A stretch of DNA of 64,000 nt from an uncultured Actinomycetes bacterium (lineage in GTDB: Bacteria; Actinomycetota; UBA4738; HRBIN12). The DNA is taken from positions 448,001 to 512,000 of the forward strand of contig OY969934.1 of the NCBI GenBank assembly GCA_963704725.1, read 5' to 3'. Within the stretch, counting starts at the first letter, position 1. Each line of letters starts with the position of its first letter. Made by a program: the position numbers and the translations under genes. Below, one piece after another: positions 1,155-58,664 of the stretch. The notes beneath the pieces are model-generated. The model had not been told where the DNA came from. It saw nothing but the letters and a program-made list of their open reading frames with translations, and did not search any database.

Positions 1155-1363
1155 GGACCAACTCCTCGGAATGGTCGCGAAAAGCGGCACCGCCGGAACC
1201 CGAGGGTCCCAGCGGCGCCAACGACATCCAACACCACCGCCGCCGCTGCGGTCAAATCCGGGTCGACGGTTTTGTCACTCTTTCTCCTATCAGGCACGCG
1301 GTTGAGCTTCCGCGCATCGGGAGGGAGTGGCACGACCCGCTCGGTTGTCGCACCATTACGGCT

Positions 1364-2002: not shown

Positions 2003-2005
2003 CGC

Positions 2006-3100
2006 TCACCGCGCCCCGGGCAGCGCGGACCCCGTCTCGCCGAAGCCGTCCCTTCGTCCGATGTTGGCGAGGTGGCACGCCGCGAAGTGGCCGCGGTGGA
2101 ACTCGTCGAGGCCGAGGTCCCGGCTGCGGCATGCGTCCTCGACCCCGGCGCGTTCGGCGGCTCCCGAGGCCAGCGCCGGACATCGCGGATGGAACCGGCA
2201 GCCCTGCGGGATCCGCGTCGGGTCGGGGGGTTCACCCACCAGGATCGGCCGCTCGATCCCTTCGGCCTCCGGAACGACGTCCAGCAGCGCCTTCGTGTAC
2301 GGGTGCAGCGGGCGCGTGAGGACGTTCTCGGCGGGGCCGATCTCGACGATCCGACCGAGGTACATGACCGCCACGCGGTCGGCCACGGTCCAGGCCAGCC
2401 CGAGATCGTGGGTCACGATGATGATCGAGATCTGGTCCTCCTCGCGCAGCTTCATCAGGAGTCGGAGGATCTCGCCCCGCACCGAGGCGTCGAGGTTGGA
2501 CACCGGTTCGTCCGCCACGATGACCTCGGGCTCGAGCACCAGAGCGCCCGCGATGACCACGCGCTGGCGCTGCCCGCCCGAGAGCTCGTGCGGGTAGAGA
2601 AGGTAGAAACGCTCGGGCGGCCGCATCCCGGCGCGCGAGAGCGCCTTCGCCACGAGCTCCTCCTCGGACTCCCCGTTCTCGCCGCGGGTGATCCGGTGGA
2701 TGCGGAGGGCCTCGGCGACGATCTCGTAGACGGTCTGGCGCGGGTTGAGGGAGCCCATCGGATCCTGGAAGACCATCTGCACGCGACGGCGGAACCGGCG
2801 CAGGTGCTTGACCGGCTCGCCCTCGAACAGGATCTGGCCCTGCTGCGGCTTGATCAGGCCCATGATCGCTCGCGCCGTCGTGGTCTTGCCGCACCCCGAC
2901 TCGCCGGCCAGCGCAAGGACCTCACCGCGCCCGAGCTCGAAGCTCACCCCGTCGACCGCCCGGGCGTCGTCGCCCTTGCGGCCCATGACGCCGGCGATCA
3001 GGCCGACGTGCCCATGGAACGTCACGCCGAGGTCGCGCACCTCCAGGACCGTGTCCCCGAAGGTGCGCTCCCCGGGCTCCGCGCGCTCTTCGATGCTCAT
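2006..3100 (-). CDS. Oligopeptide/dipeptide ABC transporter ATP-binding subunit (OppF/DppF-like)
   Basis: Starts MSIEERAEPG. Walker A GESGCGKTT, LSGGQRQR, VADEP, and C-terminal GCRFHPRC oligo_HPY motif. Confidence 0.93.
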   Translation of the reverse strand: MSIEERAEPGERTFGDTVLEVRDLGVTFHGHVGLIAGVMGRKGDDARAVDGVSFELGRGEVLALAGESGCGKTTTARAIMGLIKPQQGQILFEGEPVKHLRRFRRRVQMVFQDPMGSLNPRQTVYEIVAEALRIHRITRGENGESEEELVAKALSRAGMRPPERFYLLYPHELSGGQRQRVVIAGALVLEPEVIVADEPVSNLDASVRGEILRLLMKLREEDQISIIIVTHDLGLAWTVADRVAVMYLGRIVEIGPAENVLTRPLHPYTKALLDVVPEAEGIERPILVGEPPDPTRIPQGCRFHPRCPALASGAAERAGVEDACRSRDLGLDEFHRGHFAACHLANIGRRDGFGETGSALPGAR

Positions 3101-37822: not shown

Positions 37823-37848
37823 CGAACGGTCGCCGCCGCTCGTAGTCT
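37819..37848 (+). promoter_or_regulatory. Housekeeping-sigma promoter of znuA: TTGACG-N18-TAGTCT
   Basis: Near-consensus -35 and -10 hexamers upstream of the Zur box and znuA. Confidence 0.7.
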
Positions 37849-37860
37849 GCGGGGCAAGGT

Positions 37861-37875
37861 CAAGAATCGTTCTCA
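37861..37875. promoter_or_regulatory. Fur/Zur box CAAGAATCGTTCTCA
   Basis: AT-rich 7-1-7 imperfect palindrome (12/15 to TGAGAATCATTCTCA) between the promoter and znuA, in an operon ending with zur. Confidence 0.7.
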
Positions 37876-37905
37876 TTCTCGAAACCCGACGACCGGAGAC
37901 CTGTC

Positions 37906-38817
37906 ATGTCGAGGGTCCGCGCGATCGCGGCGATCCTCGCGGTGTTGGCCGTGGGGGCGTCGGCCTGCGATCGGTCCTCGGGCGCGTCCGACGGCGGGCT
38001 CACGGTCGTGGCGAGCTTCTACCCCCTCGCCGTGGCGGTGGAGCGCTCGGCGGGCGACCTCGTCACCGTCGTGAACCTCACCCCCGCGGGCGTCGAGCCC
38101 CACGATCTCGAGCTCGCCCCGGACGATCTCGAGGCGGTCGTCACCGCGGATCTCGTCGTCTACCTCGGCGGCGGATTCCAGCCCGCCGTCGAGGACGGGG
38201 TGCAACAGGCCGAGGGGGCGACCCTCGACGCGCTACAGGCCGTGGGCCCGCTCCGTTCGCCGCCGCCGGGAGCGGGGGAGGCCGAGCTCACGGCCGATCC
38301 GCACGTGTGGCTCGACCCGGCACGATACTCGCGGATCGTGGGGGCGGTTGCGAACGCCCTCGCCCGGCTCGACCCGGCGCACGCCGACGCGTTCCGCTCG
38401 AACGCCGAGGCGTTCCAGGGGGATCTCTCGTCGCTCGACGCGGAGTTCCACGACGGGCTGGCGACCTGCGCGCGCCGGATGATCGTCACGAGCCACGCGG
38501 CGTTCGGCTACCTGGCCGAGTCCGACGACCTGGAGCAGGTGCCGATCGCGGGGCTCTCGCCCGACGCCGAGCCCAGCGCGCAGCGGATCGCGGAGCTCCG
38601 GACGCTCGTGCAGGAGCAGGGGATCACCACGATCTTCACCGAGGACCTGGTCTCGCCGAAGGTCGCCGAGACGCTGGCCGACGAGGCCGGCGTCGAGACG
38701 GCGGTCCTGAACCCGCTCGAGGGGCTGACGCAGGAGCAGGTCGACGCCGGGGACGACTACCTTTCCATCATGCGCGGCAACCTGGAGATCCTGAGGACGG
38801 CCCTTGACTGCACCTGA
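37906..38817 (+). CDS. znuA: Zn/Mn ABC transporter substrate-binding lipoprotein (ZnuA/AdcA-like)
   Basis: Lipobox ASAC; EPHD, DPHVWLDP, HAAFGYL, LNPLE. Confidence 0.9.
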   Translation: MSRVRAIAAILAVLAVGASACDRSSGASDGGLTVVASFYPLAVAVERSAGDLVTVVNLTPAGVEPHDLELAPDDLEAVVTADLVVYLGGGFQPAVEDGVQQAEGATLDALQAVGPLRSPPPGAGEAELTADPHVWLDPARYSRIVGAVANALARLDPAHADAFRSNAEAFQGDLSSLDAEFHDGLATCARRMIVTSHAAFGYLAESDDLEQVPIAGLSPDAEPSAQRIAELRTLVQEQGITTIFTEDLVSPKVAETLADEAGVETAVLNPLEGLTQEQVDAGDDYLSIMRGNLEILRTALDCT

Positions 38818-39628
38818 GCGGCACGCCGCCGCACCCGACCTGTCTCCGGCGACGCCGGTGAGGCGAGCCCCGGCCTCGCTCGGCGACGTCCTGGTGCGCG
38901 CCGAGGGCGTCACCTTCGCGTTCGGGCGTGCGCGCGTCCTCGAGGGCGTCGACCTCACGGTGCGCGCCGGCGAGTTCGTCGCGCTCGTCGGGCCGAACGG
39001 CTCGGGCAAGTCGACCCTGCTCCGCCTGCTGCTCGGGTCGCTGACGCCGTCCGGGGGATCCGTCCAGCTGCTGGGCGAGACCCCCTCCAATCTCGCCGAT
39101 CGGGCCCGGATCGGATACGTGCCGCAGCGGCCCGTGCTCGACTCGGAGGTGCCGGCCACCGTCGAGGAGATCGTGGCCGCGGGGCGTCTGGCCCGGCGCG
39201 GGTGGTGGCGACCGCTCCGACGAGAGGATCGCGAGTTCGTGAGCCACGCCCTCGAGTCCGTCGGCCTCGGCGACCTGGCGCGCAAGCCGCTCAACGAGCT
39301 GTCGGGTGGACAGCAGCAGCGCGCGTTCATCGCACGGGCGTTCGCCGGCGAGCCCGATCTGCTGCTCCTCGACGAGCCGATCGCCGGCATCGACGCCGAG
39401 TCGCAACGCCGGTTCCGGGACTCGCTCACCCACCTCATCGCCGAGCACGGCGCCGGCGTCCTGCTCGTCTCGCACGAGCTTTCGGCGGTGGCCCCGGAGC
39501 TCGACCGCGTCATCGTGCTGAAGCGGCGCGTCCTGTTCGACGGGCCGCCGTCGGAGCTGGCCGCCTCGGGCGTGAGCCTGGGGATCCACCGCGACGACCT
39601 CCCGCTCTGGCTCGAGGGGCTGCGCTGA
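38804..39628 (+). CDS. znuC: Metal ABC transporter ATP-binding protein
   Basis: GPNGSGKST, GYVPQ, LSGGQQQR, LLDEP. Confidence 0.88.
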   Translation: MTAPERHAAAPDLSPATPVRRAPASLGDVLVRAEGVTFAFGRARVLEGVDLTVRAGEFVALVGPNGSGKSTLLRLLLGSLTPSGGSVQLLGETPSNLADRARIGYVPQRPVLDSEVPATVEEIVAAGRLARRGWWRPLRREDREFVSHALESVGLGDLARKPLNELSGGQQQRAFIARAFAGEPDLLLLDEPIAGIDAESQRRFRDSLTHLIAEHGAGVLLVSHELSAVAPELDRVIVLKRRVLFDGPPSELAASGVSLGIHRDDLPLWLEGLR

Positions 39629-40482: not shown

Positions 40483-40931
40483 GCGACGTCCACGCCGTCG
40501 TCGAGGAGCGCCTGCGCGCGGTCGGCCAGCGGTACACCGCCCAGCGCAGGGCGTTGATCGACGCGCTCCGGCGCGCGGGCAACCCTGTCCCGATCCCCGA
40601 CCTCGCGAACGCGCGTCGAGGGCTCCCGCAGAGCTCGGTCTACCGGAACCTCGCCCTGCTGGAGCAGGCCGGCGCCGTGCATCGCGTGCTGACGGGAGAG
40701 GAGTTCGCCCGGTACGAGCTCACCGAGGATCTCACCGAGCACCACCACCATCTCGTCTGCCGCAGCTGTGGAGCGGTCGAGGACGTCACGGTGACCTCGA
40801 GCTTCGAGCGTCAGGTGGCGCGAGCCGTCACGGAGATCGCCGACCGCACGGGGTTCTCGGCCGCCAGCCACCGGCTCGACCTGTTCGGGACGTGCCGGAG
40901 CTGTGTCGAGCGCCGTCAGGCCGTGAGGTAG
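40479..40931 (+). CDS. zur: Fur-family regulator, likely Zur
   Basis: SSVYRNL, HHHHLVCRSCG, GTCRSC; last gene of the znu operon. Confidence 0.85.
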   Translation: MSDVHAVVEERLRAVGQRYTAQRRALIDALRRAGNPVPIPDLANARRGLPQSSVYRNLALLEQAGAVHRVLTGEEFARYELTEDLTEHHHHLVCRSCGAVEDVTVTSSFERQVARAVTEIADRTGFSAASHRLDLFGTCRSCVERRQAVR

Positions 40932-41677
40932 GGCCGGTCCGGACGAGAGACGGAGGCGATCCCGCCGGCGTTCACGATGACCTCGCGGCCGATCGGGTAG
41001 ATCGTCCCGGTCACCTCCACCCACTCGTTGTCCTCGAACGCTCCCGGCGTGACGTTGACCACGCGGACCTGGGCGATCGTCGCGTCGGCCACGCAGCACG
41101 TCACGACGTACCGGGTGAGGAAGAACTCGTCCGCGGGCGTGTCGGCGTAGCGCGTGACGAACCCGACGAAGTCCACGGACTCGCCGGCGCGCTTGGCCAG
41201 GGCGCGCTCGCCGTCCGGCGACGTCTGCCCTGCGGCGACGTCCACGAGCGTGAGCTCGCCGCTCGCGATGTCCCCCGCCGAGGACGCGATCCCGGAGCCG
41301 GTGAACCCTGACCGCTTGTTGGCGGAGAACGAGCCCAGCGTGGCCGGCGGCAGCACCATGACCAGGAGGACGGGCACGACCATCGCTCCCATGATCAACA
41401 GCTCGTGCCGACGGATCGGCTCGGGCCGCCGGGCCCGGGCGGAGGCCAGCCGGCCGAGCGCGGCGGCCGACAGGATCACGGCCGCCACGGGCACCACCCA
41501 CTCCGTGCGGGTCGAGAGGTAGAACGCTCGGCGTCCCGAGAGCAGGAGGAACCAGAAGAGCGTCGCCCACGCGCCGAGGACGACGGCGCCCGCCACCCGA
41601 GCCGGGCTCCACACGCGGGGGAGCGCGGTCTCGGTGATGGGCCGGGGTGCGTCCCGGGCGACGACGGCGTCGGTCAT
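40916..41677 (-). CDS. TIGR03943/DUF1980 (YcgQ-like) putative permease subunit
   Basis: N-terminal TMs; LTRYVVTCCVADA, NEWVEVTG, PDRPY. Confidence 0.85.
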   Translation of the reverse strand: MTDAVVARDAPRPITETALPRVWSPARVAGAVVLGAWATLFWFLLLSGRRAFYLSTRTEWVVPVAAVILSAAALGRLASARARRPEPIRRHELLIMGAMVVPVLLVMVLPPATLGSFSANKRSGFTGSGIASSAGDIASGELTLVDVAAGQTSPDGERALAKRAGESVDFVGFVTRYADTPADEFFLTRYVVTCCVADATIAQVRVVNVTPGAFEDNEWVEVTGTIYPIGREVIVNAGGIASVSRPDRPYLTA

Positions 41678-42678
41678 CCGAACAGCACCCCGATCCACAG
41701 CGTGCCGACGAGCGTGGTCGCGGTCACCCCGATGAGGACCGCGCGCACGAACCCACGGCGGAACGTCCCGCCGTACAGCGCCACCAGCTTCAGGTCGACC
41801 ATCGGTCCGAACACGAGGAACGCCAGCTGCGCGGCGGGGCCGAACTGCACGAACGACGCCGCAACGAACGCGTCCGACTCGGAGCACAGGGACAGCACGC
41901 CGGCGAGGGCCATCATCACGAGCAGCGACACGACCGGCACGCCGGCCACGCCGGTCAGGAGCGACGTCGGCAGGAACGTCTGGATCGCCGCGGCGACGGT
42001 CGCGCCGAGGATCAGGTAGCGGCCCATGAACAGGAAGTCGTTGCCGAGGTGGACGAAGAACCGCCGCCACCGGGCCTCGGGCCGGCCGAGCTCGGTCAGG
42101 TGCTCGTGTGCCTCCTCCGGGTTCGGCTTGAGGAGCTCGTCCTTCGTCCGGGTGCCCACCAGCCAGCCGACCGCGACCGCCACGAGGAACCCGAGCACGA
42201 AGCGTCCCCCGATCATCGTCCACTCGGTCGACCGCCCTCGGTACGCGAAGAACGTGGACGCCACGACGACCGGATTGAGCACCGGCGCGGCGAGCATGAA
42301 CGTCACCGCAGCCGACGGCATGAGCCCGCGCTGCGCCAGCCTCCGAGCCACCGGCACCGAGCCGCACTCGCAGATCGGGAAGGCCAGACCGGCCAGGGCG
42401 GCCGCCGGGAGCTGCAACGGACGGGGGAGCCGGCCGAGCCTCTCGAGCGTGCCGATCGGCACGAAGATCTCGACGAGCGATGCGGCCAGGGCGCCGAGCA
42501 TCACGAACGGCAGCGCCTGGATCAGCAGCGAGCCGAAGATGACGAGGTACGTTCGGACCCACTCGACCCGCTGCGGGTCGAGCAGCCGCAGGGCGACGGC
42601 GCCGAGGACGAGGAGCCCGGCGGCGAGCACGGCGCCGCGCGTCGAGACCGTTCGGGATCTGGGGGCGGCGACGGCCAT
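41674..42678 (-). CDS. DUF318 (YcgR-like) predicted permease
   Basis: QALPF, PICECGSVP, FMLAAPVLNP, LSLCSESDAFVA, FGPMVDLK. Confidence 0.88.
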   Translation of the reverse strand: MAVAAPRSRTVSTRGAVLAAGLLVLGAVALRLLDPQRVEWVRTYLVIFGSLLIQALPFVMLGALAASLVEIFVPIGTLERLGRLPRPLQLPAAALAGLAFPICECGSVPVARRLAQRGLMPSAAVTFMLAAPVLNPVVVASTFFAYRGRSTEWTMIGGRFVLGFLVAVAVGWLVGTRTKDELLKPNPEEAHEHLTELGRPEARWRRFFVHLGNDFLFMGRYLILGATVAAAIQTFLPTSLLTGVAGVPVVSLLVMMALAGVLSLCSESDAFVAASFVQFGPAAQLAFLVFGPMVDLKLVALYGGTFRRGFVRAVLIGVTATTLVGTLWIGVLFG

Positions 42679-44006
42679 CAGCAGTACCTCGCGAACGAGA
42701 CGGCGAAGCCCTGGAACGCGTCCGCCATCATCTCCCGCCCGTCCTCGTCCGTCACGCCGAGCAGCGCGTCCACGGCGACCTGACCGGTGATCGCCGCCTC
42801 GGTCAGGACCCGCTGGTCGAGGAAGAGCCCTCCTGGCACCGTCGCCGCGACGGCGGGAGCGACGCCGGGCACGGCGTCCTCGGCCGCGGCGATCAGGCCC
42901 GTGTCCGGGACGGCGTCCGCGCGGCGTTCGGACGTTCCCGTTCCCGCCACCGCGACGAGCACGGAGCCGCCGATCGCCGCGCGGGCGGCGTCCACGATCC
43001 GCTCGGTCCGGCGGTCGAGCGCTCGCACGTCGCCGTCGAGCACCACGCCGAGGACGTCCGGGATCTCGTCGCCGATCCCCGGCGCCTCGAGCAGCGAGCG
43101 CGCCGCGCCGACGGCCCGCTCTCCGCGGGCCACGACGACGCGGTCGGTGTCGTGCTGCGCGTACCACGCACCGCCGATCAGGCCGCGGTCGAGGTCATCG
43201 GTGGCGACGAGCGAGACGATCGAGCGCTGACCGGTGGCGTCATCGAGGTCCTCGGCGAGCGTGGCGATCACGGGAACCGGCGCTCCCTCGCCGAACGCCG
43301 GAACCACCTGACCCGCGTCGTTGCGGACGAACGAGCCGGTCACCCCGTGTTGGTGCGGCAACCCGCCGGTGCCGATCGTCGCGAGCGTGGCCGTCGGGTC
43401 GAGGGGGAGCGACCCCGTCTCGCCCCTCAGCGTGCCGGCCCCGTCGCGGAGCAGCGATCGAAGGAACGGCCAGTCCTTCGGCGCGCCCTCGAGATCGATG
43501 GTGCCGACGCCCTTCCACGCCACGAGGAGGACGAGGCCCGGGGCTTCACCACTCGCGACGCCGTCGATCGCCGTGCCGGAACGCACGTCGGGGAAGGGGC
43601 GCTCGAAGCCGATCGCGTCGCTCGCGGTCGGGGCGATCCGGTCGAGGGTGACGCCACCCGGGACCGGTGCACCGGCCGCGACGCCCGCGCCGGCGAACAC
43701 GATCGGGACGCGAGTGTCCGCTGAGCCCCGAACGGCCGGCCACGGCGCCGGCAGGCCGGTCCCACCGGTCGCCGAGAACACCGGCACTCGGTTCGACACC
43801 GCGAGGACGTCGGGTGACCGGCCCTCGCGGAAGCCGGCGGCGATCTCCCGCTTCAGGGCTTCGGGCAGGGGACAGAAGGGCGTCCGGGCGACGCCCTCGG
43901 AGCCCGAGTCGCAGGATCTCCCGGCGCAGACGGCGTGCAGGACCCCGGCGGGGATGCCGACGACGGCGAGCACGAGCAGGAGGATGAGCAGGCGACGACC
44001 GGACAC
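42678..44006 (-). CDS. Degenerate (probably inactive) circularly permuted alkaline-phosphatase-superfamily protein
   Basis: RSPDVL..DTRVPIVFAG..DRIAPT then GLVLLVAWKG..WPFLRSL..ATIGTG..HGVTG, colinear with the three neighbouring paralogs but lacking metal ligands. Confidence 0.75.
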   Translation of the reverse strand: MSGRRLLILLLVLAVVGIPAGVLHAVCAGRSCDSGSEGVARTPFCPLPEALKREIAAGFREGRSPDVLAVSNRVPVFSATGGTGLPAPWPAVRGSADTRVPIVFAGAGVAAGAPVPGGVTLDRIAPTASDAIGFERPFPDVRSGTAIDGVASGEAPGLVLLVAWKGVGTIDLEGAPKDWPFLRSLLRDGAGTLRGETGSLPLDPTATLATIGTGGLPHQHGVTGSFVRNDAGQVVPAFGEGAPVPVIATLAEDLDDATGQRSIVSLVATDDLDRGLIGGAWYAQHDTDRVVVARGERAVGAARSLLEAPGIGDEIPDVLGVVLDGDVRALDRRTERIVDAARAAIGGSVLVAVAGTGTSERRADAVPDTGLIAAAEDAVPGVAPAVAATVPGGLFLDQRVLTEAAITGQVAVDALLGVTDEDGREMMADAFQGFAVSFARYC

Positions 44007-44065
44007 GGATCTCCACGGTAACGCCGGGTCGCTGGGTTGTCGTTCTCGGTTCCGTGGTGTTTCGT

Positions 44066-45814
44066 ATGCCGCTCGTGACCCTCTCGCGGCGTGGTGTCGG
44101 ACTGCTCGCCGCCTTGGTCGTGGTCGCCGCCGCGTGCACGGGAGACGACGGCGGCTCGGCGGCGCCCGAACGATCGGCCCGGCCGTCCGCTCCGCCGGCC
44201 TCCGCGCCGTCCTCTCCGTCGGGCTCGGCCTCGGGGCAGAGCCCCGGAGCGACGCCGGCCGTCGCCACCGGCGACCTCGTCGACGTGGCGTGCTCGTTGC
44301 CGCACGAATGGCTCCTGCGGACCTGGAGGGGCGATCGCGCCGACCGCAGCGCCGAGCTGCAGTTCCTCCCCGACGAGCCGAACTTCGTCGGGTCGGGCCT
44401 CCCTCACGTGGGGCCGTGGCCGTACGCGCAGGACGTTCCGATGTTCTGGTACGGCCCGGGGCACATCGCCCCGGCCGGCGTCGTCGACCGTCCGGTCACC
44501 CTCGCGGGGATCGCCCCCACGGAGGCCGAGCTGCTCGGCTTCCCGTTCCGAACGCCCGACGGGACGCCGATGAGCGAGGCGCTCGCCGGCAACCCGGCGC
44601 CGCCGAAGCTGATCGTGACGATGGTGTGGGACGCCGGCGGCCGCAACGTGCTCGCGCGGTGGCCGAAAGAGTGGCCGTTCCTGAAGTCGCTGATCTCGGA
44701 GGGCGCCTGGTACGAGCACGCCACCGTCGGGACGTCGCCGACGAGCACGGCGCAGACGCACGCCACGATCGGGACCGGGCTGTTCCCCGACCATCACGGC
44801 ATCGTGGGGCACCGCCTGCGCATCGGCGGCCAGATCACGACGCCGTGGCAGCGCGGGCCGACCTACCTGATCGCGCCGACGCTCGCGGACCTGTACGACG
44901 AGGCCATGGGGAACGAACCGGTCGTCGGCGAGCTCGGAACCGTGAGCATCCACCTCGGCATGCTGGGGCACGGCTCGATGTGGGGAGGCGGGGACCAGGA
45001 CATCGCCGCGGTGCGCGAGGTGGTCGGCGCCGACACCCTCGGAGCCGAGGGGTTCGAGTGGAACCTCACGCCGAGCCTGCAGCCGTACTACCGGTTCCCC
45101 GACTACCTCAACGACGTCCCGGGGTTCGACCAGGACGTGCGCGACGTCGACGCCGCCGACGGGCGGATCGACGGCAGGTGGCGGACGAACGACATCGCGC
45201 AGCTGCTGTCGGGGTTCGACACGCCGGCGCGCATCCCGTACCAGACGCGGGCCCTCGAGGAGCTGATCACACGCGAAGGGTTCGGGCAGGACGACGTCCC
45301 GGACCTCCTGTTCGTGAACTACAAGATGATCGACTACATCAGCCATGTGTGGACGGTGAACAGCCCCGAGATGAAGGACGCCGTCGCGGACCAGGACCTG
45401 GCCCTGCAGGAGCTCGTGGGGTTCCTCAACCAGACCGTCGGCGAGGGTCAGTGGGCGCTCGTCCTCACGGCCGACCACGGCTCGATCCCCGACCCCGAGG
45501 TGAGCGGGGCGTTCCAGATCTCGGCCACCCCGATCGCGAACGGCATCAACGCGACGTTCGACACGGACGGCGATGACACGCGCATCGTGCAGGTCATCCA
45601 GCCGACGCAGATCTTCGTGAACACCGACGAGCTCGAGCAGAACGGGCACACGCTCGAGGAGCTGAGCTCCTGGATCATGGGCCTCACGAAGGCCGACACG
45701 GCCCAGCCCGGCGTCGTCGTCCCGCCCGACGAGGCCGGCGACCGGGTGTTCCAGGCTGCGTTCCCCTCCTCCCTGCTCGACGAGCTGCCGTGCCTGCCCG
45801 AGGCCCATCGGTGA
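44066..45814 (+). CDS. Alkaline phosphatase superfamily (PafA/NPP-like) lipoprotein, circularly permuted, paralog 1
   Basis: Lipobox VAAAC; PHVGPW, VWDAGG, PTSTAQTHATIGTG, IDYISH, LTADHG. Confidence 0.88.
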   Translation: MPLVTLSRRGVGLLAALVVVAAACTGDDGGSAAPERSARPSAPPASAPSSPSGSASGQSPGATPAVATGDLVDVACSLPHEWLLRTWRGDRADRSAELQFLPDEPNFVGSGLPHVGPWPYAQDVPMFWYGPGHIAPAGVVDRPVTLAGIAPTEAELLGFPFRTPDGTPMSEALAGNPAPPKLIVTMVWDAGGRNVLARWPKEWPFLKSLISEGAWYEHATVGTSPTSTAQTHATIGTGLFPDHHGIVGHRLRIGGQITTPWQRGPTYLIAPTLADLYDEAMGNEPVVGELGTVSIHLGMLGHGSMWGGGDQDIAAVREVVGADTLGAEGFEWNLTPSLQPYYRFPDYLNDVPGFDQDVRDVDAADGRIDGRWRTNDIAQLLSGFDTPARIPYQTRALEELITREGFGQDDVPDLLFVNYKMIDYISHVWTVNSPEMKDAVADQDLALQELVGFLNQTVGEGQWALVLTADHGSIPDPEVSGAFQISATPIANGINATFDTDGDDTRIVQVIQPTQIFVNTDELEQNGHTLEELSSWIMGLTKADTAQPGVVVPPDEAGDRVFQAAFPSSLLDELPCLPEAHR

Positions 45815-47520
45815 GGCCGCGGGGCCCCGCGCTCCTGCTGGCCGCGGCCCTCGTCGCGGCGGCCTGCACGTCGGGGGGCGATCGAGGCGCCGACGACGGC
45901 TCGAGCCCCACCTCCGCCCTTCCCGCCTCGGCGAGCCCGGTCCGGCCCTCCTCCACCACCCCCGCGGAGCCCGAGCCCGGCGCGCTCGAGCAGGCGGCGT
46001 GCGCGATGCCGCACCGCGAGCTCGTTCGCATCTGGCGCGGGACCGATCCGCAGCGCTCCGGCCAGATCGTGGTCGTGCCGCAGGAGCCGAACTTCCTCGG
46101 CTCGAACTTCCCGCACTCGGGCCCCTGGGACTACCTGCAGGACGTTCCGTTGCTCTGGTACGGGCCGGGCATCGTCCCGGCGCTCGGGTCCGTCGACCGG
46201 CCCGTGACGCTCGCCTCGGTCGCGCCGACCGAGGCCAAGCTGCTCGGCTTCGACTTCTCGGCCCCGGACGGCCACGCCCTTCCCGAGATCCCCGCCCCCG
46301 CGACGGCGCCGCCGCTGATCGTGACGTTCGTGTGGGACGCCGGCGGACGCAGCGTCCTCGACTCCTTTCCGCAGGACTGGCCGGTCCTGCGCTCGCTGAT
46401 CGACGGCGGGGTCTGGTACGAGCACGCCAGCGTGGGCTCGAGCCCCTCGATCACGCCGGCCACGCATGCGACGATCGGCACCGGCGCCTACCCCATGCAC
46501 ACCGGGCAGACGGACGCCGAGTTCCGCATCGGCCCGGACCTCGTGCGGGCCGGCCAGCTCGGCCCGGTGCTGTTGATGGAGCCCACGCTGGGGGATCTGT
46601 ACGACCGTGCGATGGGCAACGCGCCGCTCGTGGGGGATCTGGCCAGCGTGACCTGGCACCTCAACATGGCCAGCCACGGCTCGCTGTGGGGCGGCGGAGA
46701 CCGGGACATCGCGGTGCTCCGCACGCCCAGCATCTCCGGCGGGAACGAGGGCGCCGAGGGCAACCAGTGGAACCTCCAGGGCAAGAACCGGCCCTACTAC
46801 GAGTTCCCCGAGTACGTGAACGACCTGCCGCCGCTGTCGGCATACACGGACGCCGTCGACCGGGCCGACGGTGCGATCGACGGCATGTGGCGCGACAACT
46901 CGATCCAGCAGTACGAGGACGGGTGGGCCACGCCCGCCCGGATCCCGTACCAGGAGCGGATGATCGAGGAGGTCGTGGCGCGCGAGGGCTTCGGCGACGA
47001 CGACGTGCCCGACCTCCTGTTCATCAACTCGAAGGCGATCGACCACGCGAGCCACATCTGGAGCGTGAACAGCCCCGAGATGCAGGACATGCTGTCGTGG
47101 CAGGACGAGGCGCTCGGGCAGTTCATCCGGTTCCTCGACGACGAGGTGGGAGCGGGACGGTGGGTCCTGCTCCTCACGGCCGACCACGGCGCGCAGTTCG
47201 ACCCGCAGGTCTCGGGCGCGTTCCAGGTCACCCCGACGCACCTCGAGCAGGACCTGAACGAGGCCTTCCCGTCGTCGACGGACCAGTCGGTGTTCCAAGC
47301 CGTGCGCACGAGCCAGATCTACGTGAACGAGACGACGATGGAGGCGAGCGGGTACACGTTCGAGGAGATCTCGCGGTTCGTCCTGGACTACACGAAGGCC
47401 CAGGGCGCGACCGACCCCGCCACGGTCCCCGCCGACCAGCGCGACGACCGGGTCTTCTCCGCGGCGTTCCCCATCGACCTGCTTCCCACGCTGACCTGCC
47501 TGCCCGAGGCTCGGGAGTGA
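45811..47520 (+). CDS. Alkaline phosphatase superfamily (PafA/NPP-like) lipoprotein, circularly permuted, paralog 2
   Basis: GTGA overlap; VAAAC; PHSGPW, VWDAGG, PSITPATHATIGTG, IDHASH, LTADHG. Confidence 0.88.
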   Translation: MRPRGPALLLAAALVAAACTSGGDRGADDGSSPTSALPASASPVRPSSTTPAEPEPGALEQAACAMPHRELVRIWRGTDPQRSGQIVVVPQEPNFLGSNFPHSGPWDYLQDVPLLWYGPGIVPALGSVDRPVTLASVAPTEAKLLGFDFSAPDGHALPEIPAPATAPPLIVTFVWDAGGRSVLDSFPQDWPVLRSLIDGGVWYEHASVGSSPSITPATHATIGTGAYPMHTGQTDAEFRIGPDLVRAGQLGPVLLMEPTLGDLYDRAMGNAPLVGDLASVTWHLNMASHGSLWGGGDRDIAVLRTPSISGGNEGAEGNQWNLQGKNRPYYEFPEYVNDLPPLSAYTDAVDRADGAIDGMWRDNSIQQYEDGWATPARIPYQERMIEEVVAREGFGDDDVPDLLFINSKAIDHASHIWSVNSPEMQDMLSWQDEALGQFIRFLDDEVGAGRWVLLLTADHGAQFDPQVSGAFQVTPTHLEQDLNEAFPSSTDQSVFQAVRTSQIYVNETTMEASGYTFEEISRFVLDYTKAQGATDPATVPADQRDDRVFSAAFPIDLLPTLTCLPEARE

Positions 47521-49211
47521 GGCGTCGCCGTTCCGCGGCGGCGCTGCTCGCGGTGGCCGTCGTCGCCGCGGCGTGCACCGGCGACTCGCCGGGTCCCGGC
47601 CCGTCGCGGACGCCCGGCGCGCCGACGAGCCCTCCGCCCCCGACCAGCGACCGGGAGCTGGCGCGGACCGCGTGCCGCAACGTCGACCACGACGTCCTCC
47701 TGCGGACCTGGCACGGCGTCAGCCTGGACCGCAGCGGCGACGTCCAGATCATCCCCGTGGAGCCGAACTTCGTGAACGGCGGGCTGACCCACGCCACGCC
47801 GTTCGACTACACGCAGGACGTCCCGCTCTTCCTGTACGGGCCCGGCTACGTGAGGTCCGGCGTCTACGACGAGCCGATCACGCTGGCCGACCTCGCGCCG
47901 ACGACGGCTGCGCTGCTGAAGTACCGGTTCGACGCGCCGGACGGGAGCCCCCAAACCCAGGCGCTCCTCCCGGCGGCCGACCGCCCGCTCCCCGCGCTCG
48001 TCGTGACGGTCATCTGGGATTCGGGCGGAGACGATGTTCTTGATCGATGGCCCCACAGCTGGCCCTACCTTCGCTCGCTCCGCCAGCGGGGAGCGTGGTT
48101 CACCAACGTCACCGTGGGCTCGTCCCCGTCGAACACGCCGACCGGCCACGCGACGATCGGCACGGGGGCGTTCCCGATGCGCAACGGGTTCGTCGACGAG
48201 TACCTGCGGGTGAACGGCCGCATCCAGAAGCCGAACGCGAACGGTCCGGCGTTCCTGAACGTCCCCACTCTGGCCGACCTCTACGACGCGGCGAGGGACA
48301 ACGCGCCGAAGGTCGGGGCCATCGCGACGCTCGCGGCCCACATCATGATGATGGGCCACGGCTCGGAGTGGGGCGACGGCGACCGGGACCTCGCCGTGAC
48401 GCGGGAGAAGGAGTTCGCGGCCACGGCCGGCGCCGAGAGCCTGACCTGGAACCTGACGAGCGCGATGGCACCCTTCTACGACCTGCCCGGCTACGTGAAC
48501 GACCTCCCTCCGCTCTCCGACTACGTCGACGCGATCGATCGCCTGGACGGCCGGCTCGACGGCAAGTGGCGCACGAACGACATCGCCCAGCTCTCCAACG
48601 GGTTCGACACCCCGGCACGCACGCCGTTCCAGGAGACGCTGATCGAGGCCGTGATCCAGCGCGAGGGGTTCGGCGCCGACGACGTTCCCGACCTGCTGTA
48701 CCTCAACTACAAGGCCATCGACACGATCGGTCACCTGTTCAGCGCGGACGGGGTCGAGATGTCGGACGCGGTGAAGGTGCAGGACGAGACGCTGCGCCGG
48801 CTGATCGACTTCCTCGATCAGACCGTCGGCCGGGACCGATGGGTCATGGTGCTCACCGCCGACCACGGGACCCAGCGCGACCCCACCGCCTCCGGCGCGT
48901 TCATGATCGACATCCACAAGCTGGAGGACGGCCTCAACCGCACGTTCGACGGCGATGGCGACGGGGTCCCGGCGATCCAGAAGGTCCGCCCCACCGAGGT
49001 CTGGATCGACACCGACGAGCTCGCCGAGAACGGGTTCACCCTCGAGCAGGTCTCGCGCTGGTTCCTCGGCCTCACGCAGCAGGAGACCTACAAGAACCAG
49101 CACGTCCCGGCGGCCGGGCACGAGGACGATCCGGTCTTCGCCGCCGCGTTCCCGTCGTCTATCCTGACGGCGCTCCCGTGCCTTCCCGAGGCCCGCGGGA
49201 GCTCGTCGTAG
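47517..49211 (+). CDS. Alkaline phosphatase superfamily (PafA/NPP-like) lipoprotein, circularly permuted, paralog 3
   Basis: GTGA overlap; VAAAC; THATPF, IWDSGG, PSNTPTGHATIGTG, IDTIGH, LTADHG. Confidence 0.88.
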   Translation: MRRRRSAAALLAVAVVAAACTGDSPGPGPSRTPGAPTSPPPPTSDRELARTACRNVDHDVLLRTWHGVSLDRSGDVQIIPVEPNFVNGGLTHATPFDYTQDVPLFLYGPGYVRSGVYDEPITLADLAPTTAALLKYRFDAPDGSPQTQALLPAADRPLPALVVTVIWDSGGDDVLDRWPHSWPYLRSLRQRGAWFTNVTVGSSPSNTPTGHATIGTGAFPMRNGFVDEYLRVNGRIQKPNANGPAFLNVPTLADLYDAARDNAPKVGAIATLAAHIMMMGHGSEWGDGDRDLAVTREKEFAATAGAESLTWNLTSAMAPFYDLPGYVNDLPPLSDYVDAIDRLDGRLDGKWRTNDIAQLSNGFDTPARTPFQETLIEAVIQREGFGADDVPDLLYLNYKAIDTIGHLFSADGVEMSDAVKVQDETLRRLIDFLDQTVGRDRWVMVLTADHGTQRDPTASGAFMIDIHKLEDGLNRTFDGDGDGVPAIQKVRPTEVWIDTDELAENGFTLEQVSRWFLGLTQQETYKNQHVPAAGHEDDPVFAAAFPSSILTALPCLPEARGSSS

Positions 49212-49228
49212 CGGGAGCAGGGGATCGT

Positions 49229-52200
49229 ATGGCGCTCACCAAGGACCGTCCCGACCAGGCCGTCCGCGTCTCGGAGGCCGAGGCCCGGGGGTTCCTGGGA
49301 CGGCCGGTCGTCTTGGCCGTGGCCATCGCGGTGGTGCTCCTGGCGTTCGGCTGGACCTTCCTGCGCGACCCCTCGGTCAGCGCCCCCACGCGCGACCCGG
49401 CCTGGTACACGTGGCGATCGAACCTGATGATGAACGACGACCCCGGCCTCATCGCGGGCGACTGGGGGCCGTTCTCGATGTTCGGCGGGGGCTATCGCGT
49501 CTCGGTCCCGCTCTACGGCTCGATCCTTCAGCGGGTGGCCGGGATCGACCTGTACACGTTCAGCGCGTTCATGATGGTGGGGGTCCCCGTGCTCACCGGG
49601 CTGGCTCTCGGTGCGTTCGCGTGGCGTCGCTCCCGCGATCCGTTGCTGTTCCTGCTCGTCATGCTCGCGACGGCGGCCCTGTTCATGACGACGCCCTACG
49701 TCGGCTACCTCGACAACATCACGATCCTGTTCTTCCTGTCGATGATCCTGGCGTTCTTCGAACCCGGGCGGACGTCGTGGGGCGCGAGGACCGCGCTCTT
49801 CCTGCTCGGCATCGTCGCGGCGTACACCCATCCCACGACGTGCGTCATCTTCGGCGCGTCGCTGATGGCCGTGTTCGGCCTCCGCGTCCTGACGAGCCGG
49901 TTCCACCTCGGCCCCGCCCTGAAGGAGCTCGGGCCGTCGCTGATGTCGGTCGGGTTCGGGATGATCCTCGGGCTCGGCTCGTGGCTCGCGTCGCCGTGGG
50001 GCGTGAAGGGGTCGCTCGCCGACGCGGCCCTTCCTCCGCCGTACACGCGAGAGGTCTTCATGAAGCGCCTCGACGGCTGGGTGAGCTCACTGCAACCGGC
50101 GATCGTCGTGCCGCTCGTGGTGCTGGCGATCGGCTGGACGATCTGGCGGGCCCGGCGGGATCACGAGCGATCCGACGGGTTCGGGACGATCTCGACGATG
50201 CTGCTCCTGCCCTTCCTCGGAACGCTCGGGTGGATCGCGGGGGCGACCTATCCCTACTACCGGTTCATGAACGCCACCCTCGCGCTCTTCCCGCTCGCGG
50301 GGCTCGGCGCGTACGTCGCGATCAAGTGGCTGTGGCGACGCGACGGCCTGGCGAAGGTCGCAGGCCTCGTCGCCTCGCTGGTGATCGTCGGGTCGTTCGG
50401 CTTCATCTGGGTCAACGGGCGGGACGCGGCGCAGTGGGCCAACCCCGACAACCAGTGGATCGACCAGCCCACCCGAACCGCGCTCTCGGCGGCGCGCGCG
50501 GTCGTCGAGCACTCGCCCCCGGACTCGCCGGTCGTCTTCGTCGTGAACTTCGGCGACACCTACCAGTCCTACGGATGGGCGAAGACCTTCACGAACGTCT
50601 CGCGGACCGGCCTGCCCGGCGAGGACGTGAAGCGCTCCATGACCTACTTCGGCGCCGTCGACGACCTGCTCGCGAACCGGCCGACCGCGTTGACGGATCC
50701 GACCTACAACAAGATGTCGCGGGGCTTCCTCCGCGAGCTGACCGCCCTCCGCGAGGAGTACACGGGCCCGCCGGTCGTCCTCCTCGTCCGCCAGTTCAAC
50801 CAGGGCACCGTGAACGAGGACCTGCTCGACTCGGGCGATCCGACCCTGATGAAGATCGGCGACGACATCGCCGTCGTCACGGGGCCGGAGCTCGCGACGC
50901 CGTCACCGGCCGCCCTGGAGGACGCTCGCGCGTCCGAGGCCGCCGTGGCCGCCTTCTACGCGGACCACCCGGGGATCTTCGGGAACCTCGGGCACACGCT
51001 GTTGGTGGTCCTCGCCCTGGTCCTGCTCCTGGTCGTCCCCGGCCTGCTCGCGGCGGACTACTTCGAGCTGAACGACACGTGGCTCCGGGTCTCGCTCGTG
51101 CCGGGGATCTCGATCGCGCTCACCGTGCTGGCGGGAGTGATCGTCGTCGGCGTGCACCGGGCGCCTTTCGGGACCGGCGACGGGTGGGCCTCGCTCGGTC
51201 TGGCCACCGTGTTCGCCGGAGGTCTCCGCGTGGGCGCTCGGCCGATCCAGCGGACCATGGCGGCCGTCGGCGACTTCTTCAACCGGATGTTCTCCACGTT
51301 CTCCAACGCGGACTTCGCGGCGCTGATGGGCGTGCAGTTCCTGGTCATGGCGGCGGACGGCCTGATCCGGGGGTCGATCGCCAAGTCGATCGCGTTCGGA
51401 GGCCAGGAGGGTTTCGACATCACGACGGTGCCGTCAGCCGACTACCTCCTGAAGGTGGTGCTGGCGCTCTACGTGCCGTACACGTTCCTGTCGCCGTTCA
51501 TCGGCGTCGTCATCGACCGGTTCGAGCGGCGGCGCGTGCTGGCCGTCTCGAGCATCGTCACCGCCGCGACCACGGCGGTCCTCGCCGTCGCGATCATGCT
51601 CCCCCTCGGCGACGACACGTCCGAGGGCAAGGTGGCGGCGACCGCCGGCCTGGTCCTGGCGATGCTGGTCATGCAGGCCTGCGTGCGGATCATGCTCGCG
51701 GTCAAGTCGGCCGCCCTGCCCGGCGTCGTGCACGGGAAGGACCTGATGAACGGCAACGGTCTGTCCCAGGCCGGCGGCGCGCTCTTCCAGGTGCTCGGGG
51801 CGGGGGTGGCGTTCGGGGCCGGCGGGGCGCTGCCGTCCTGGGCGGTCGTGATCGTCGGCGGCGGGACGCTCGTGGTGTCGGCGTTCGTGGCGATGCGGAT
51901 CCAGCGCATGGAGATCACGAAGCACGTGACGTCGTTCGCCGAGGAGGCCAAGCGCGTCGTCAAGGACATCGCGAACGGCGTCCGGGAGGTGGCGCAGCGC
52001 CCGGCCGCGGCGCTCGGGCTCACCGCGTTCCAGATGCTCCGGTACCAGTTCTGGGGGTTCGCCCTCGGCGTGTTCGCCCTGTACGCGCGCTCCCTCGTCG
52101 AGAGCGGCGACGTCGACTCGATCGCGCTCGCCATCGTGGGCGGAGGCGGGTTCGTGGGCGGCGCGCTCGGCATGGTGCTCGCGCAGCGGTGGAAGGACCG

Positions 52201-52609
52201 CGTGCCTCCCGTCCGGCTGCTCCTCGGGTCGATGGCGCTCCTCGGCGGGAGCGCGCTCGTCCTCGGCTTCTGGGTGAGCCTGGCCGGCTTCACCCTCCTG
52301 CTGTTCTTCGGGTTCTTCGCGTTCTTCCTCGGCAAGATCTCCGCCGACACGATCCTCCAGCAGGCCATCCGAGACGATTTCCGGGGCCGCGCGTTCGCGC
52401 TGTTCGACATCGCGTACAACCTCGGGTTCATCGTCCCGGCGCTCATCCTCGTGCTCGTGTGGAACGACGACCGGGCGGGCGTCACGCTGATCGCTTCCGG
52501 CGCGGTGTTTCTCGCGCTGACGGCGGGCATCGCCCGCTGGGCTCGGGCCATCCGAGCGGAGCTCGCCCCGCAGGACGACCTCGCCGACGACGCCCCGGAG
52601 GCGCGGTGA
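49229..52609 (+). CDS. 1126-aa polytopic membrane protein: GT-C-like N-terminal region fused to a C-terminal MFS domain
   Basis: TM1 then TRDPAWY loop, many TMs, YTHP, YYRF and an extracytoplasmic domain. From about 51260 a 12-TM MFS with GVVIDRFERRRVL and DDFRGRAFA. Confidence 0.75.
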   Translation: MALTKDRPDQAVRVSEAEARGFLGRPVVLAVAIAVVLLAFGWTFLRDPSVSAPTRDPAWYTWRSNLMMNDDPGLIAGDWGPFSMFGGGYRVSVPLYGSILQRVAGIDLYTFSAFMMVGVPVLTGLALGAFAWRRSRDPLLFLLVMLATAALFMTTPYVGYLDNITILFFLSMILAFFEPGRTSWGARTALFLLGIVAAYTHPTTCVIFGASLMAVFGLRVLTSRFHLGPALKELGPSLMSVGFGMILGLGSWLASPWGVKGSLADAALPPPYTREVFMKRLDGWVSSLQPAIVVPLVVLAIGWTIWRARRDHERSDGFGTISTMLLLPFLGTLGWIAGATYPYYRFMNATLALFPLAGLGAYVAIKWLWRRDGLAKVAGLVASLVIVGSFGFIWVNGRDAAQWANPDNQWIDQPTRTALSAARAVVEHSPPDSPVVFVVNFGDTYQSYGWAKTFTNVSRTGLPGEDVKRSMTYFGAVDDLLANRPTALTDPTYNKMSRGFLRELTALREEYTGPPVVLLVRQFNQGTVNEDLLDSGDPTLMKIGDDIAVVTGPELATPSPAALEDARASEAAVAAFYADHPGIFGNLGHTLLVVLALVLLLVVPGLLAADYFELNDTWLRVSLVPGISIALTVLAGVIVVGVHRAPFGTGDGWASLGLATVFAGGLRVGARPIQRTMAAVGDFFNRMFSTFSNADFAALMGVQFLVMAADGLIRGSIAKSIAFGGQEGFDITTVPSADYLLKVVLALYVPYTFLSPFIGVVIDRFERRRVLAVSSIVTAATTAVLAVAIMLPLGDDTSEGKVAATAGLVLAMLVMQACVRIMLAVKSAALPGVVHGKDLMNGNGLSQAGGALFQVLGAGVAFGAGGALPSWAVVIVGGGTLVVSAFVAMRIQRMEITKHVTSFAEEAKRVVKDIANGVREVAQRPAAALGLTAFQMLRYQFWGFALGVFALYARSLVESGDVDSIALAIVGGGGFVGGALGMVLAQRWKDRVPPVRLLLGSMALLGGSALVLGFWVSLAGFTLLLFFGFFAFFLGKISADTILQQAIRDDFRGRAFALFDIAYNLGFIVPALILVLVWNDDRAGVTLIASGAVFLALTAGIARWARAIRAELAPQDDLADDAPEAR

Positions 52610-53142
52610 TGCAGAGACTCTCCTCGCCCGATCCCGTCTCCGAGCCGGCCGCGTATCAGCAGCACCTGCTCGGCCTCCTCGGGCAGGACGATCCGGCCGA
52701 GGTGCAGGCCGGCGCGGTGGAGGCCTGGCGCGCGCTCGTCGACGAGACCGGGGACCGGCTGCGAGACCGCCCCGAGCCCTCCGAGTGGTCGGTGCTGGAG
52801 TGCCTGGGGCACGCCACAGACGCCGAGCTCGTCGTGTCGGGCCGCTACCGGTGGATCCTCGCGCACGACGAGCCGCCCCTGATCGGCTACGACCAGGACC
52901 TGTGGGTGGACCGCCTCCGCCACCACGAGGACGACCCCGACGAGCTCCAGGCGTTCCTGGGCGCGCTCCGATCGGCCAACCTCGCGCTGTGGCGCAAGAC
53001 GCCGGAGGGGGACCGGGCCCGCGTCGGCGTGCACGCCGAGCGGGGACCGGAGAGCTACGAGCTCACGTTCCGGCTGCTCGCCGGGCACGACCGCTTCCAC
53101 CTGGCGCAGGCGCGCCGCGCGCTCGACGCCGTCTCCGCCTAG
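52609..53142 (+). CDS. DinB family protein
   Basis: EWSVLECLGH, YDQDLW, HAERG, AGHDRFH; start overlaps the upstream stop. Confidence 0.88.
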   Translation: MQRLSSPDPVSEPAAYQQHLLGLLGQDDPAEVQAGAVEAWRALVDETGDRLRDRPEPSEWSVLECLGHATDAELVVSGRYRWILAHDEPPLIGYDQDLWVDRLRHHEDDPDELQAFLGALRSANLALWRKTPEGDRARVGVHAERGPESYELTFRLLAGHDRFHLAQARRALDAVSA

Positions 53143-53414
53143 GCGGGACCGGAGCCGATCGTCGCCTCGAACTCGGGGAAGTAGCGACCGATCACGGTCA
53201 CGTCGAAGCTCCGAAGGATCGACTCCTTGGGCTCGCGCTCGAGCAGGAACGCGAAGCAGGCGCGCACGAAGTCCTCGGGCGTCGCGAACGCGGCGCCGAG
53301 CCGCTCGAGGTCCTCGGCCGACGCCGTGACCTCGTGTTCGGTGCTCGAGCCCCGCTCCTCGACCGTGACGTGGAAGCGCCCGATGTCCGCTCGGACCACC
53401 GAGATCTCGGACAA
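53139..53414 (-). CDS. Conserved-looking hypothetical protein
   Basis: 91 aa; FAFLLEREPKESILRSFDVTVIGRYFPEFE. Confidence 0.7.
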   Translation of the reverse strand: MSEISVVRADIGRFHVTVEERGSSTEHEVTASAEDLERLGAAFATPEDFVRACFAFLLEREPKESILRSFDVTVIGRYFPEFEATIGSGPA

Positions 53415-53452
53415 GCCGATCCCTCCTCGCCGGGTATCGTACGCGCGACCCC

Positions 53453-54253
53453 TTGGAGGTCGAGCCCGTGCCCGAGGTCCACACGAACGACGCGACGCTG
53501 TTCTGCGAGCTCGACGGCGTCGGCGAACCGGTCACGGTCGTGGCGCACGGGCTCACGCACAACCGGAACGAGCTCGCCGCGTTCACGCCCTACGCGCCGG
53601 GCACCAAGGTCCGGTTCGACTTCCGCGGTCACGGCCGGTCGAGCAGCCCCCCGACCGGGTTCCGCTTCGCGGACTTCGCGCGAGACGTGGACGCGGTCGC
53701 GACCGCGTTCGGGGCCACGGTCGCGCTCGGGACCTCGCTCGGCGCCGGCGCCATCGGGCGCCTGGTCTGCCGGGTGCCGGATCGCTTCGAGCGCATGGTG
53801 TGGCTGCTGCCGGCGGGACTCGACATCCCGTTCTCGCTGGCCGGCCGGTATCACGCGCTGGCCGGTGAGCTCGAGGGCAAGACGCCCGAGGAGGCCCTGG
53901 AGGGCATCCTCAACGACCCCGCGCGCGTGACCGAGTATTTCCAGACGCCCTGGAGGCTGGAGGTCGACCGCCTGATGTGGCAGCACGACGACCCCGACGG
54001 TCTCGCGCGCGCCATCAACGGGGTGGTCGACGACTGGCCGATCCCCGACCGTGAGCTCCTGCGCGAGGTCCGGATCCCGACGCTGATCGTGTGCATCGAG
54101 GACGACGACATCCATCCGGCCGAGCTGGGGCCGATCTTCACCGGCCTGATGCCGGACGCCGAGCTGATCTCCTTCGCCAGCCAGGAACAGCTCTTCGCCG
54201 AGATCCCGGCGCTCGTCGCGCGTGTCGCGGCCTTCATCGAGGGGAATGACTGA
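53453..54253 (+). CDS. Alpha/beta hydrolase
   Basis: AHG, FDFRGHGRS, GTSLG nucleophile elbow. Start may be GTG 53468. Confidence 0.85.
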   Translation: MEVEPVPEVHTNDATLFCELDGVGEPVTVVAHGLTHNRNELAAFTPYAPGTKVRFDFRGHGRSSSPPTGFRFADFARDVDAVATAFGATVALGTSLGAGAIGRLVCRVPDRFERMVWLLPAGLDIPFSLAGRYHALAGELEGKTPEEALEGILNDPARVTEYFQTPWRLEVDRLMWQHDDPDGLARAINGVVDDWPIPDRELLREVRIPTLIVCIEDDDIHPAELGPIFTGLMPDAELISFASQEQLFAEIPALVARVAAFIEGND

Positions 54254-58533: not shown

Positions 58534-58664
58534 GGCTCCCCGCCTCGCCCGCCGCGAACGGCCTCATGCCGCCGGCGGTACGAGATCCCCTCTGCGGGCG
58601 CACAGTACCGAGCGCCCGTGCGGTCGCGCAACGGTTTCTTGGGGGAAGTCCTCCCCCCACGGGG

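Follow-up and report, generated by a model that had tools for sequence, protein, structure and literature searches.

Tandem PafA/PhoK-like predicted lipoproteins with a circularly permuted order of segments in an uncultured actinobacterium

We analysed a stretch of 64,000 nucleotides (the window) from an uncultured Actinomycetes bacterium (GenBank assembly GCA_963704725.1, contig OY969934.1, positions 448,001 to 512,000 of the forward strand), the genome of which is a single contig of 3.45 Mb. An initial annotation of this window, which has a G+C content of ~72%, had proposed three tandem paralogous phosphatases at 44066-49211. Three open reading frames were found there on the + strand, i.e., gene A (44066-45814, 582 amino acids when read from the ATG at 44066), gene B (45811-47520, 569 amino acids) and gene C (47517-49211, 564 amino acids). 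Within the alkaline phosphatase superfamily, their products very probably belong to the PafA/PhoK (SPAP) branch, as two-zinc phosphohydrolases that are exported and anchored by a lipid, and have a circularly permuted chain in which the segment that ends PafA comes first.

Swapped order of homologous segments

In an alignment of the A, B and C proteins, each displayed the motif order that had been described for it, i.e., a signal peptide with a lipobox followed by RSG, PNF, H..P(W/F), QDVP, YGPG, TLA..APT and PDG and, after PDG, by P.L(I/V)VT..WD, HATIGTG, PDLL.N.K.ID..H and LTADHG. The canonical colinear order, in which the last His segment lies C-terminal to the ADHG motif, is absent in all three. 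The N-terminal segment, which corresponds to approximately the C-terminal ~100 residues of PafA, is encoded on the + strand at 44267-44590 in gene A, where it carries the RSxE, H..PW, VP..YGPG and APT motifs, at 45976-46299 in gene B, where it matches the PafA profile, and at 47649-47972 in gene C, where it contains Cys53 and His92.

For comparison with proteins of solved structure, we used an alignment of 66 full-length family members with 26-86% identity to C (alignment A2) and one of the N-terminal segment alone, for which 40 sequences, those of A and B among them, were taken from the window and from 16 related loci (alignment A3). Profiles were searched against all 177,635 sequences of the PDB. 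PDB sequences were used instead of a profile-profile comparison because no canonical PafA alignment was available from the phylum: none of 301 sampled Actinomycetota genomes reached the cut-off of the NCBIfam PafA model (NF042991), and the five partial matches were to the core of the permuted family itself.

The A2 profile matched PafA (5tj3_A; E 4.1e-69) in two pieces of swapped order, with profile positions 143-496 aligned to chain residues 14-414 (independent E-value (i-E) 7e-50) and positions 40-139 aligned to residues 436-534 (i-E 8e-16). The same was seen with SPAP/PhoK (E 4e-47), in which positions 126-458 corresponded to chain residues 21-373 and positions 45-135 to residues 453-547. 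When A3 alone was used as the query, the best match in the PDB was the C-terminal end of PafA (E 1.1e-14, residues 435-533 of 549) and the second was SPAP (E 1e-5, residues 458-547); weaker matches to sulfatases, iPGM and LtaS likewise fell in the later part of those chains. The swap was also apparent in a search with the single sequence of A, which aligned to PafA 5tj3 at residues 179-249 (chain 16-89), 401-475 (chain 272-346) and, weakly, 77-173 (chain 435-533).

Similar results were obtained when single N-terminal segments were compared with the 554 positions of the NCBIfam PafA model. The segment of C matched positions 462-543 (E 7.7e-9), that of B positions 457-543 (E 3.9e-6) and that of A positions 472-544 (E 0.024), and residues 48-137 of a divergent paralog encoded upstream of A, gene D, matched positions 458-541 (E 9.7e-5). 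The two swapped diagonals against PafA and SPAP that a natural circular permutation, as proposed in the initial annotation, would be expected to give were thus found, and none of the comparisons yielded a single colinear alignment to a known family of the superfamily.

The core of the three proteins belongs to PF01663 (Phosphodiest), with bit scores of 99.8, 77.5 and 87.5 for A, B and C, respectively, far beyond a chance match (cut-off 23), and this profile was matched by 66/66 family members. The match starts ~165-185 residues into each protein and covers only positions ~2-296 of 342; residues 187-555 of A, for example, correspond to profile positions 5-296. It ends at position 296 in A, 225 in B and 275 in C, and the C-terminal end of the profile has no match after the core. 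By contrast with these partial matches, two canonical members of PF01663 encoded in this genome (L001 and L002) matched the whole profile, and a hidden Markov model (HMM) of the N-terminal segment matched both weakly at their C-terminal ends (in L002 at residues 474-516, i-E 0.0034). Against the NCBIfam PafA equivalog model, A, B and C scored 95.1, 81.6 and 103 bits, respectively, and did not reach the curated cut-off of 650. Full-length representatives with identities down to 27% were colinear with C from about residue 60-90 onward, and four loci that hold a single catalytic copy (L019, L020, L021 and L029) showed the same order of segment followed by core.

Predicted structure, active site and export

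An AlphaFold2 model of C, computed with alignment A2, was of single-domain type, with a mean predicted local distance difference test score (pLDDT) of 93.2 and a predicted template modelling score (pTM) of 0.91; block means over residues 41-160, i.e., the region of the relocated segment, were 91-99. The top Foldseek matches of this model were PafA and SPAP (E 2.5e-11 to 5e-9, template modelling scores 0.37-0.51). With VIA-align, residues 154-562 of the model were superposed on residues 24-453 of PafA 5tj3 (Z 27.1, root mean square deviation (rmsd) 3.2, 364/520 residues aligned), and SPAP gave Z 25.4 with an rmsd of 2.9-3.0 over 357-358 residues. Both programs gave colinear alignments only, and the last ~90 residues of PafA and model residues ~40-153 were left without a colinear partner. 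A colinear match that reaches the end of the model while ~90 residues of PafA are still to come is what a permutation predicts, and the cut was placed near PafA residues 447-453 by both methods. Thus, two swapped blocks cover both proteins and the whole chain yields one compact model, as is expected of a circular permutant.

When the N-terminal segment was folded alone, using the 40-sequence alignment, the model was poor (pLDDT 64.1, pTM 0.42) and contained no strands; for this reason, it was not used for a fold search of the PDB. In these models, the segment behaves as something other than an autonomous domain, which is consistent with its membership of the central sheet.

The term PafA/NPP-type, under which the three proteins had been annotated, was borne out in its PafA/SPAP part (VIA-align Z 25-27), while NPP proved to be the more distant relative (Z 15-16.6; 15.9 for Xac NPP, 2gsn). 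The NPP family (Xac NPP; ENPP1-7), covered by PF01663, has the same two-metal core with a Thr nucleophile. PafA (PDB 5tj3, 5too; NF042991) is the closest solved relative by both sequence and fold. It shares with the permuted proteins the Thr nucleophile (T79, equivalent to T207 of C) as well as the D, DxxxH, DH and C-segment His motifs, and its auxiliary regions between the core strands could be aligned too, with a Z-score well above that for NPP. The permuted proteins differ from PafA in that its last ~100 residues (chain 436-534) form their first folded segment, in an identity of only 18-21%, and in that they are predicted lipoproteins that have a Pro/Ser/Ala linker and a pair of cysteines at the termini. 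The hosts also differ, given that the permuted proteins described here are from Actinomycetota, whereas PafA was found mainly in Bacteroidetes according to a published survey (PMC8812569). The second-best relative, SPAP/PhoK of Sphingomonas (PDB 3q3q, 5xwi, 5xwk), is about 20% identical and has an HGSPW..VP motif that resembles the H.GPW..VP of the permuted family, but its order is canonical, with the His segment at residues 453-547 of 565.

The initial annotation had stated that all six predicted zinc ligands and the Thr nucleophile were retained. Eight catalytic positions, numbered as in C, were found to be occupied as expected in A, B and C and to be nearly invariant among the 66 family members, i.e., H92 (65/66), D168 (64/66), T207 (62/66, plus two with Ser), H211 (64/66), D402 (62/66), H406 (63/66), D449 (66/66) and H450 (66/66). 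The six metal ligands among them (H92, D168, D402, H406, D449 and H450) are assigned by homology. The His of the relocated segment pairs with the His at chain index 475 of PafA, which is H486 in entry numbering (an offset of +11, fixed by the T79S difference between 5tj3 and 5too) and which we take to be the last zinc ligand of PafA; by this correspondence, H92 would lie at the metal site. In one study, H486 of PafA is named as a densely connected residue (10.1101/2025.02.10.637555).

In the assembly that we propose, the ~100 residues with which PafA ends are placed after the signal peptide and a Pro/Ser/Ala-rich linker. This relocated segment would comprise an RSGD strand, a loop that carries the last His for metal binding, a VPL..G.G strand and an (I)APT helix. 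The old N-terminus (P.LVVT.VWD) would follow, and the chain would end at the equivalent of PafA residue ~453. The reordered pieces would then build the same active site, in which one metal would be coordinated by D168, T207, D449 and H450 and the second by D402, H406 and H92, a division of the ligands that we presume by reference to NPP and PafA. With T207 as the nucleophile, the reaction would proceed via a phospho-threonine intermediate. From this arrangement, we infer that A, B and C hydrolyze phosphate esters.

A pair of cysteines was found at the two ends of the folded chain. Cys53, where the folded part begins, and Cys555, in the C-terminal ..PCLPEA motif, were both present in 42/66 members and both lacking in 20/66; the four discordant rows were all due to alignment gaps. 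A permutant derives its two ends from a single loop that was cut, so that a disulfide stapling these ends is the natural reading of such covariation, and C53 and C555 most likely form a bond of this kind between the new N- and C-termini. We also considered whether the N-terminal C.LPHE and the C-terminal CLPEA were remnants of one duplicated segment; this was rejected, as the likeness fades in more distant members.

With regard to export, A, B and C each begin with a basic, hydrophobic signal peptide that ends in ..AAAC, which is followed by a Pro/Ser/Ala-rich linker and then by the series of motifs. Using a PROSITE PS51257-style regular expression, the lipobox Cys was placed at residue 24 in A, 19 in B and 20 in C, and 32/66 family members were matched. 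Judging from these N-termini, the three proteins are probably lipidated and surface-anchored. Twin-arginine-like N-termini were also observed in A (SRRGVGLL, 44066-44140) and in C (MRRRRSAA, 47517-47580). Across the family, the Pfam TAT_signal profile matched one member, and a loose regular expression for the twin-arginine translocation (Tat) signal matched 10/66. Such signals hint, albeit weakly, that a folded, metal-loaded protein could possibly be exported by the Tat route.

Gene copies, distribution and neighbourhood

The A protein is 52% identical to B and 51% identical to C. The GTGA overlaps that had been noted between the genes were both read in the sequence: at 45811-45814 (+ strand), the GTG start of B (45811-45813) overlaps the TGA stop of A (45812-45814), and at 47517-47520 (+ strand), the GTG start of C (47517-47519) overlaps the TGA stop of B (47518-47520). 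From these overlaps, we infer that A, B and C are co-transcribed and translationally coupled. The start of gene A that was kept across 17 related loci is an in-frame GTG at 44075 rather than the ATG at 44066; this GTG is the likely start, a change that has no consequences elsewhere. A scan of positions 40500-53600 for promoters and terminators, which is uninformative at 72% G+C, returned no promoter-like and two terminator-like sites (2.3 expected by chance), none of them between A, B and C.

In a FastTree tree built from 54 catalytic domains, three clades were resolved, which corresponded to gene positions 1, 2 and 3, and the single-copy loci fell in the C-type clade. Matches that did not span HMM positions 40-500 were left out of this tree, which was rooted on the fifth paralog of the genome and read without regard to support values. 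Given the position-matched clades and the placement of the single-copy loci, the triplication is an old and ordered one that took place after the permutation. Fused or double-length forms (988-2820 amino acids), which might represent intermediates of a duplication route, were not found at E up to 1e-10, although this constitutes weak evidence. The fifth permuted member is encoded elsewhere in the genome (L003, G000:C1:2577373-2581302), in an open frame at 1-2733 (+) of that locus. It is 36% identical to C, and the N-terminal segment HMM and the core HMM matched it at residues 383-490 and 496-886, respectively.

The family is large and confined to a few actinobacterial lineages. Amongst 8000 scored candidates, 2430 relatives were found at E up to 1e-3; of the representatives at 50% identity, 3640 were recovered with the same limit and 183 with a limit of 1e-30. 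At the latter threshold, the family was present in 38 of the 301 sampled Actinomycetota genomes. These included 15 of the 16 genomes that represent the taxonomic family of the window, together with members of three other families of its order, and 18 of 20 genomes of one further taxonomic family, usually with at least four copies each; at the same threshold, the permuted family was not found in the other taxonomic families among the 301 genomes. These tallies include eight genomes marked as unpublished (G088, G226, G001, G120, G018, G048, G239 and G174). Atlas clusters had up to 1192 members, which were mostly from Actinomycetota and bore generic names only; one distant cluster was labelled Sericytochromatia.

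In 21 loci from metagenome-assembled genomes, the layout of the region was kept wherever the contig reached far enough: genes for a DUF1980 protein, an ArsP_1 permease and D lie on one strand, with one to three catalytic copies, a membrane protein fused to a major facilitator superfamily (MFS) transporter and a DinB-family protein on the other. In the window, gene D (42681-44006, - strand, 442 amino acids) is followed on the same strand by the ArsP_1 permease gene (41677-42669) and the DUF1980 gene (40919-41752). The D protein is 31% identical to A and has the same permuted order, and all eight of the catalytic positions checked were absent from it in 17/17 loci. Gene D was always divergent from the catalytic copies. 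As judged by its residues, D is a conserved pseudoenzyme, i.e., a pseudo-phosphatase.

The divergent intergenic region of 59 bases between D and A (44007-44080 examined) contains two motifs that were conserved across 17 loci. One of these, CCACG(C/G)TA(C/T)CGC, adjoins the start of D and reads, on the D strand, as a TANNNT-like -10 box located a few bases ahead of the GTG, so that the D mRNA may be leaderless or have a short leader. The other, GTGTTTC(C/G)TAT, precedes the conserved GTG of gene A at a distance of ~10 bases.

On the other side of the array, a gene for a membrane protein of ~1126 amino acids (49229-52609, + strand) begins with an ATG 18 bases after the stop codon of C. The first ~720 residues of its product were without a Pfam match, and the C-terminal third is an MFS transporter. 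Both the N-terminal part and the MFS part were matched after the phosphatase genes in 13/21 related loci, usually with a DinB-family gene behind them, as is also the case in the window (52606-53142). Further away, a ZnuA-type zinc-binding protein and an ABC ATPase are encoded upstream (37846-39625, + strand), and a beta-propeller phytase with PKD domains is encoded downstream (56509-58563, - strand). This neighbourhood fits zinc supply and phosphate scavenging, but proves neither.

Alternative explanations and significance

Several observations weigh against the reading of A, B and C as permuted PafA/PhoK-type phosphohydrolases, and they concern both the segment and the substrate. First, PF01663 gave no match to the N-terminal segments alone at E up to 10, and the only Pfam match of a segment, to the C-terminal end of the Sulfatase profile, was weak (gene C, E 0.066). 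Second, residues N100, K162 and R164 of PafA, which are named in the title of PDB entry 5too and which we take to act in monoester binding, are not kept. In an HMM alignment, the position of N100 was occupied by H, A and E in A, B and C, respectively, and that of R164 by S, T and A, whereas K162 fell in an insertion relative to the family profile and had no counterpart. Across the 66 members, the N100 position was variable (N in 23, I in 13, E in 10, H in 4 and L in 4), and Arg was present at the R164 position in 14/66. These positions were mapped via 5tj3 and 5too, which differ by T79S, N100A, K162A and R164A, and a structure-based alignment could shift them by a residue or two.

Given that the three residues are not conserved, the monoesterase chemistry of PafA cannot be assumed for A, B and C. 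It is therefore possible, though in our view somewhat less than an even chance, that the fold and the permutation are as described but that the proteins are not monoesterases, and act instead as phosphodiesterases or on cell-envelope phosphate in polymeric or lipid-linked form, with substrates that differ among the copies. In addition to the altered residues, the low NCBIfam PafA scores (82-103 bits against a cut-off of 650), the three copy types as old and separate clades, and the large membrane protein-MFS fusion that is conserved after the array all point in this direction. On the other hand, PafA and SPAP, which are by a wide margin the closest relatives of solved structure, are both listed in the PDB as alkaline phosphatases, a near-invariant Lys (K399) located three residues before the ligand D402 could supply the missing positive charge, and the phytase 7 kb downstream fits plain phosphate scavenging.

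A more far-reaching proposal, which we regard as unlikely, takes the permuted proteins to be a functionally separate PafA/PhoK branch that lacks the monoester-binding residues of PafA. Together with D, the ArsP_1/DUF1980 pair and the membrane protein-MFS fusion, they would form a surface module that processes and imports a specific organophosphate or an envelope phospho-polymer, and the permutation would have come about by fusion and end-trimming of overlapping tandem copies such as those that the array still contains.

The failure of PF01663 to detect the segment alone could also be explained if the N-terminal ~100 residues were an unrelated accessory module, with a chance or convergent likeness to the end of PafA, and if the C-terminal His segment had been lost so that the metal site was incomplete. 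We consider this very improbable. The segment alignment retrieved PafA and SPAP at the top of the entire PDB, exactly at their C-terminal ends, and even its weaker matches to sulfatases, iPGM and LtaS fell in later parts of those chains. Moreover, the His is kept in all but one of the family members, and the segment is confidently modelled within the whole protein, yet does not fold when alone.

Finally, although head-to-tail genes with four-base overlaps make a shifted reading plausible at first sight, there is next to no chance that the order is canonical and the permutation an artefact of wrong gene boundaries, with each N-terminal segment being the end of the preceding copy, since a stop codon and a separate lipobox signal peptide precede every segment, which is in frame with the core, the first gene of the array (A) also carries a segment, the single-copy loci show the same order, and C is followed by an unrelated membrane protein gene with no His segment after it.

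We thus favor the permuted PafA/PhoK-type assembly set out above. In the full-text literature, with subscription journals not covered, no permuted member of the alkaline phosphatase superfamily, or of PafA or NPP in particular, was found to be described, and a natural variant of PafA/PhoK type with this order seems to be undescribed. Searches based on profiles see the core only and miss the last ligand. The survey of PafA mentioned above used a residue filter (PMC8812569), and such a filter on the key residues of PafA, or one on colinear alignment, would discard these abundant soil-type actinobacterial enzymes.

The alkaline phosphatase superfamily, and PafA especially, is a main model in which to study how the active sites of enzymes come about and evolve. 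For PafA itself, mutants at more than 1000 positions have reportedly been studied by high-throughput kinetics. The permuted family occurs naturally and counts at least 183 clusters (50% identity, E up to 1e-30). Its members appear to arrive at the same two-metal site with a chain that is cyclically shifted and the ends of which are apparently stapled by a disulfide. The family therefore offers a ready-made test of how chain connectivity bears on folding, metal loading and catalysis in this fold.

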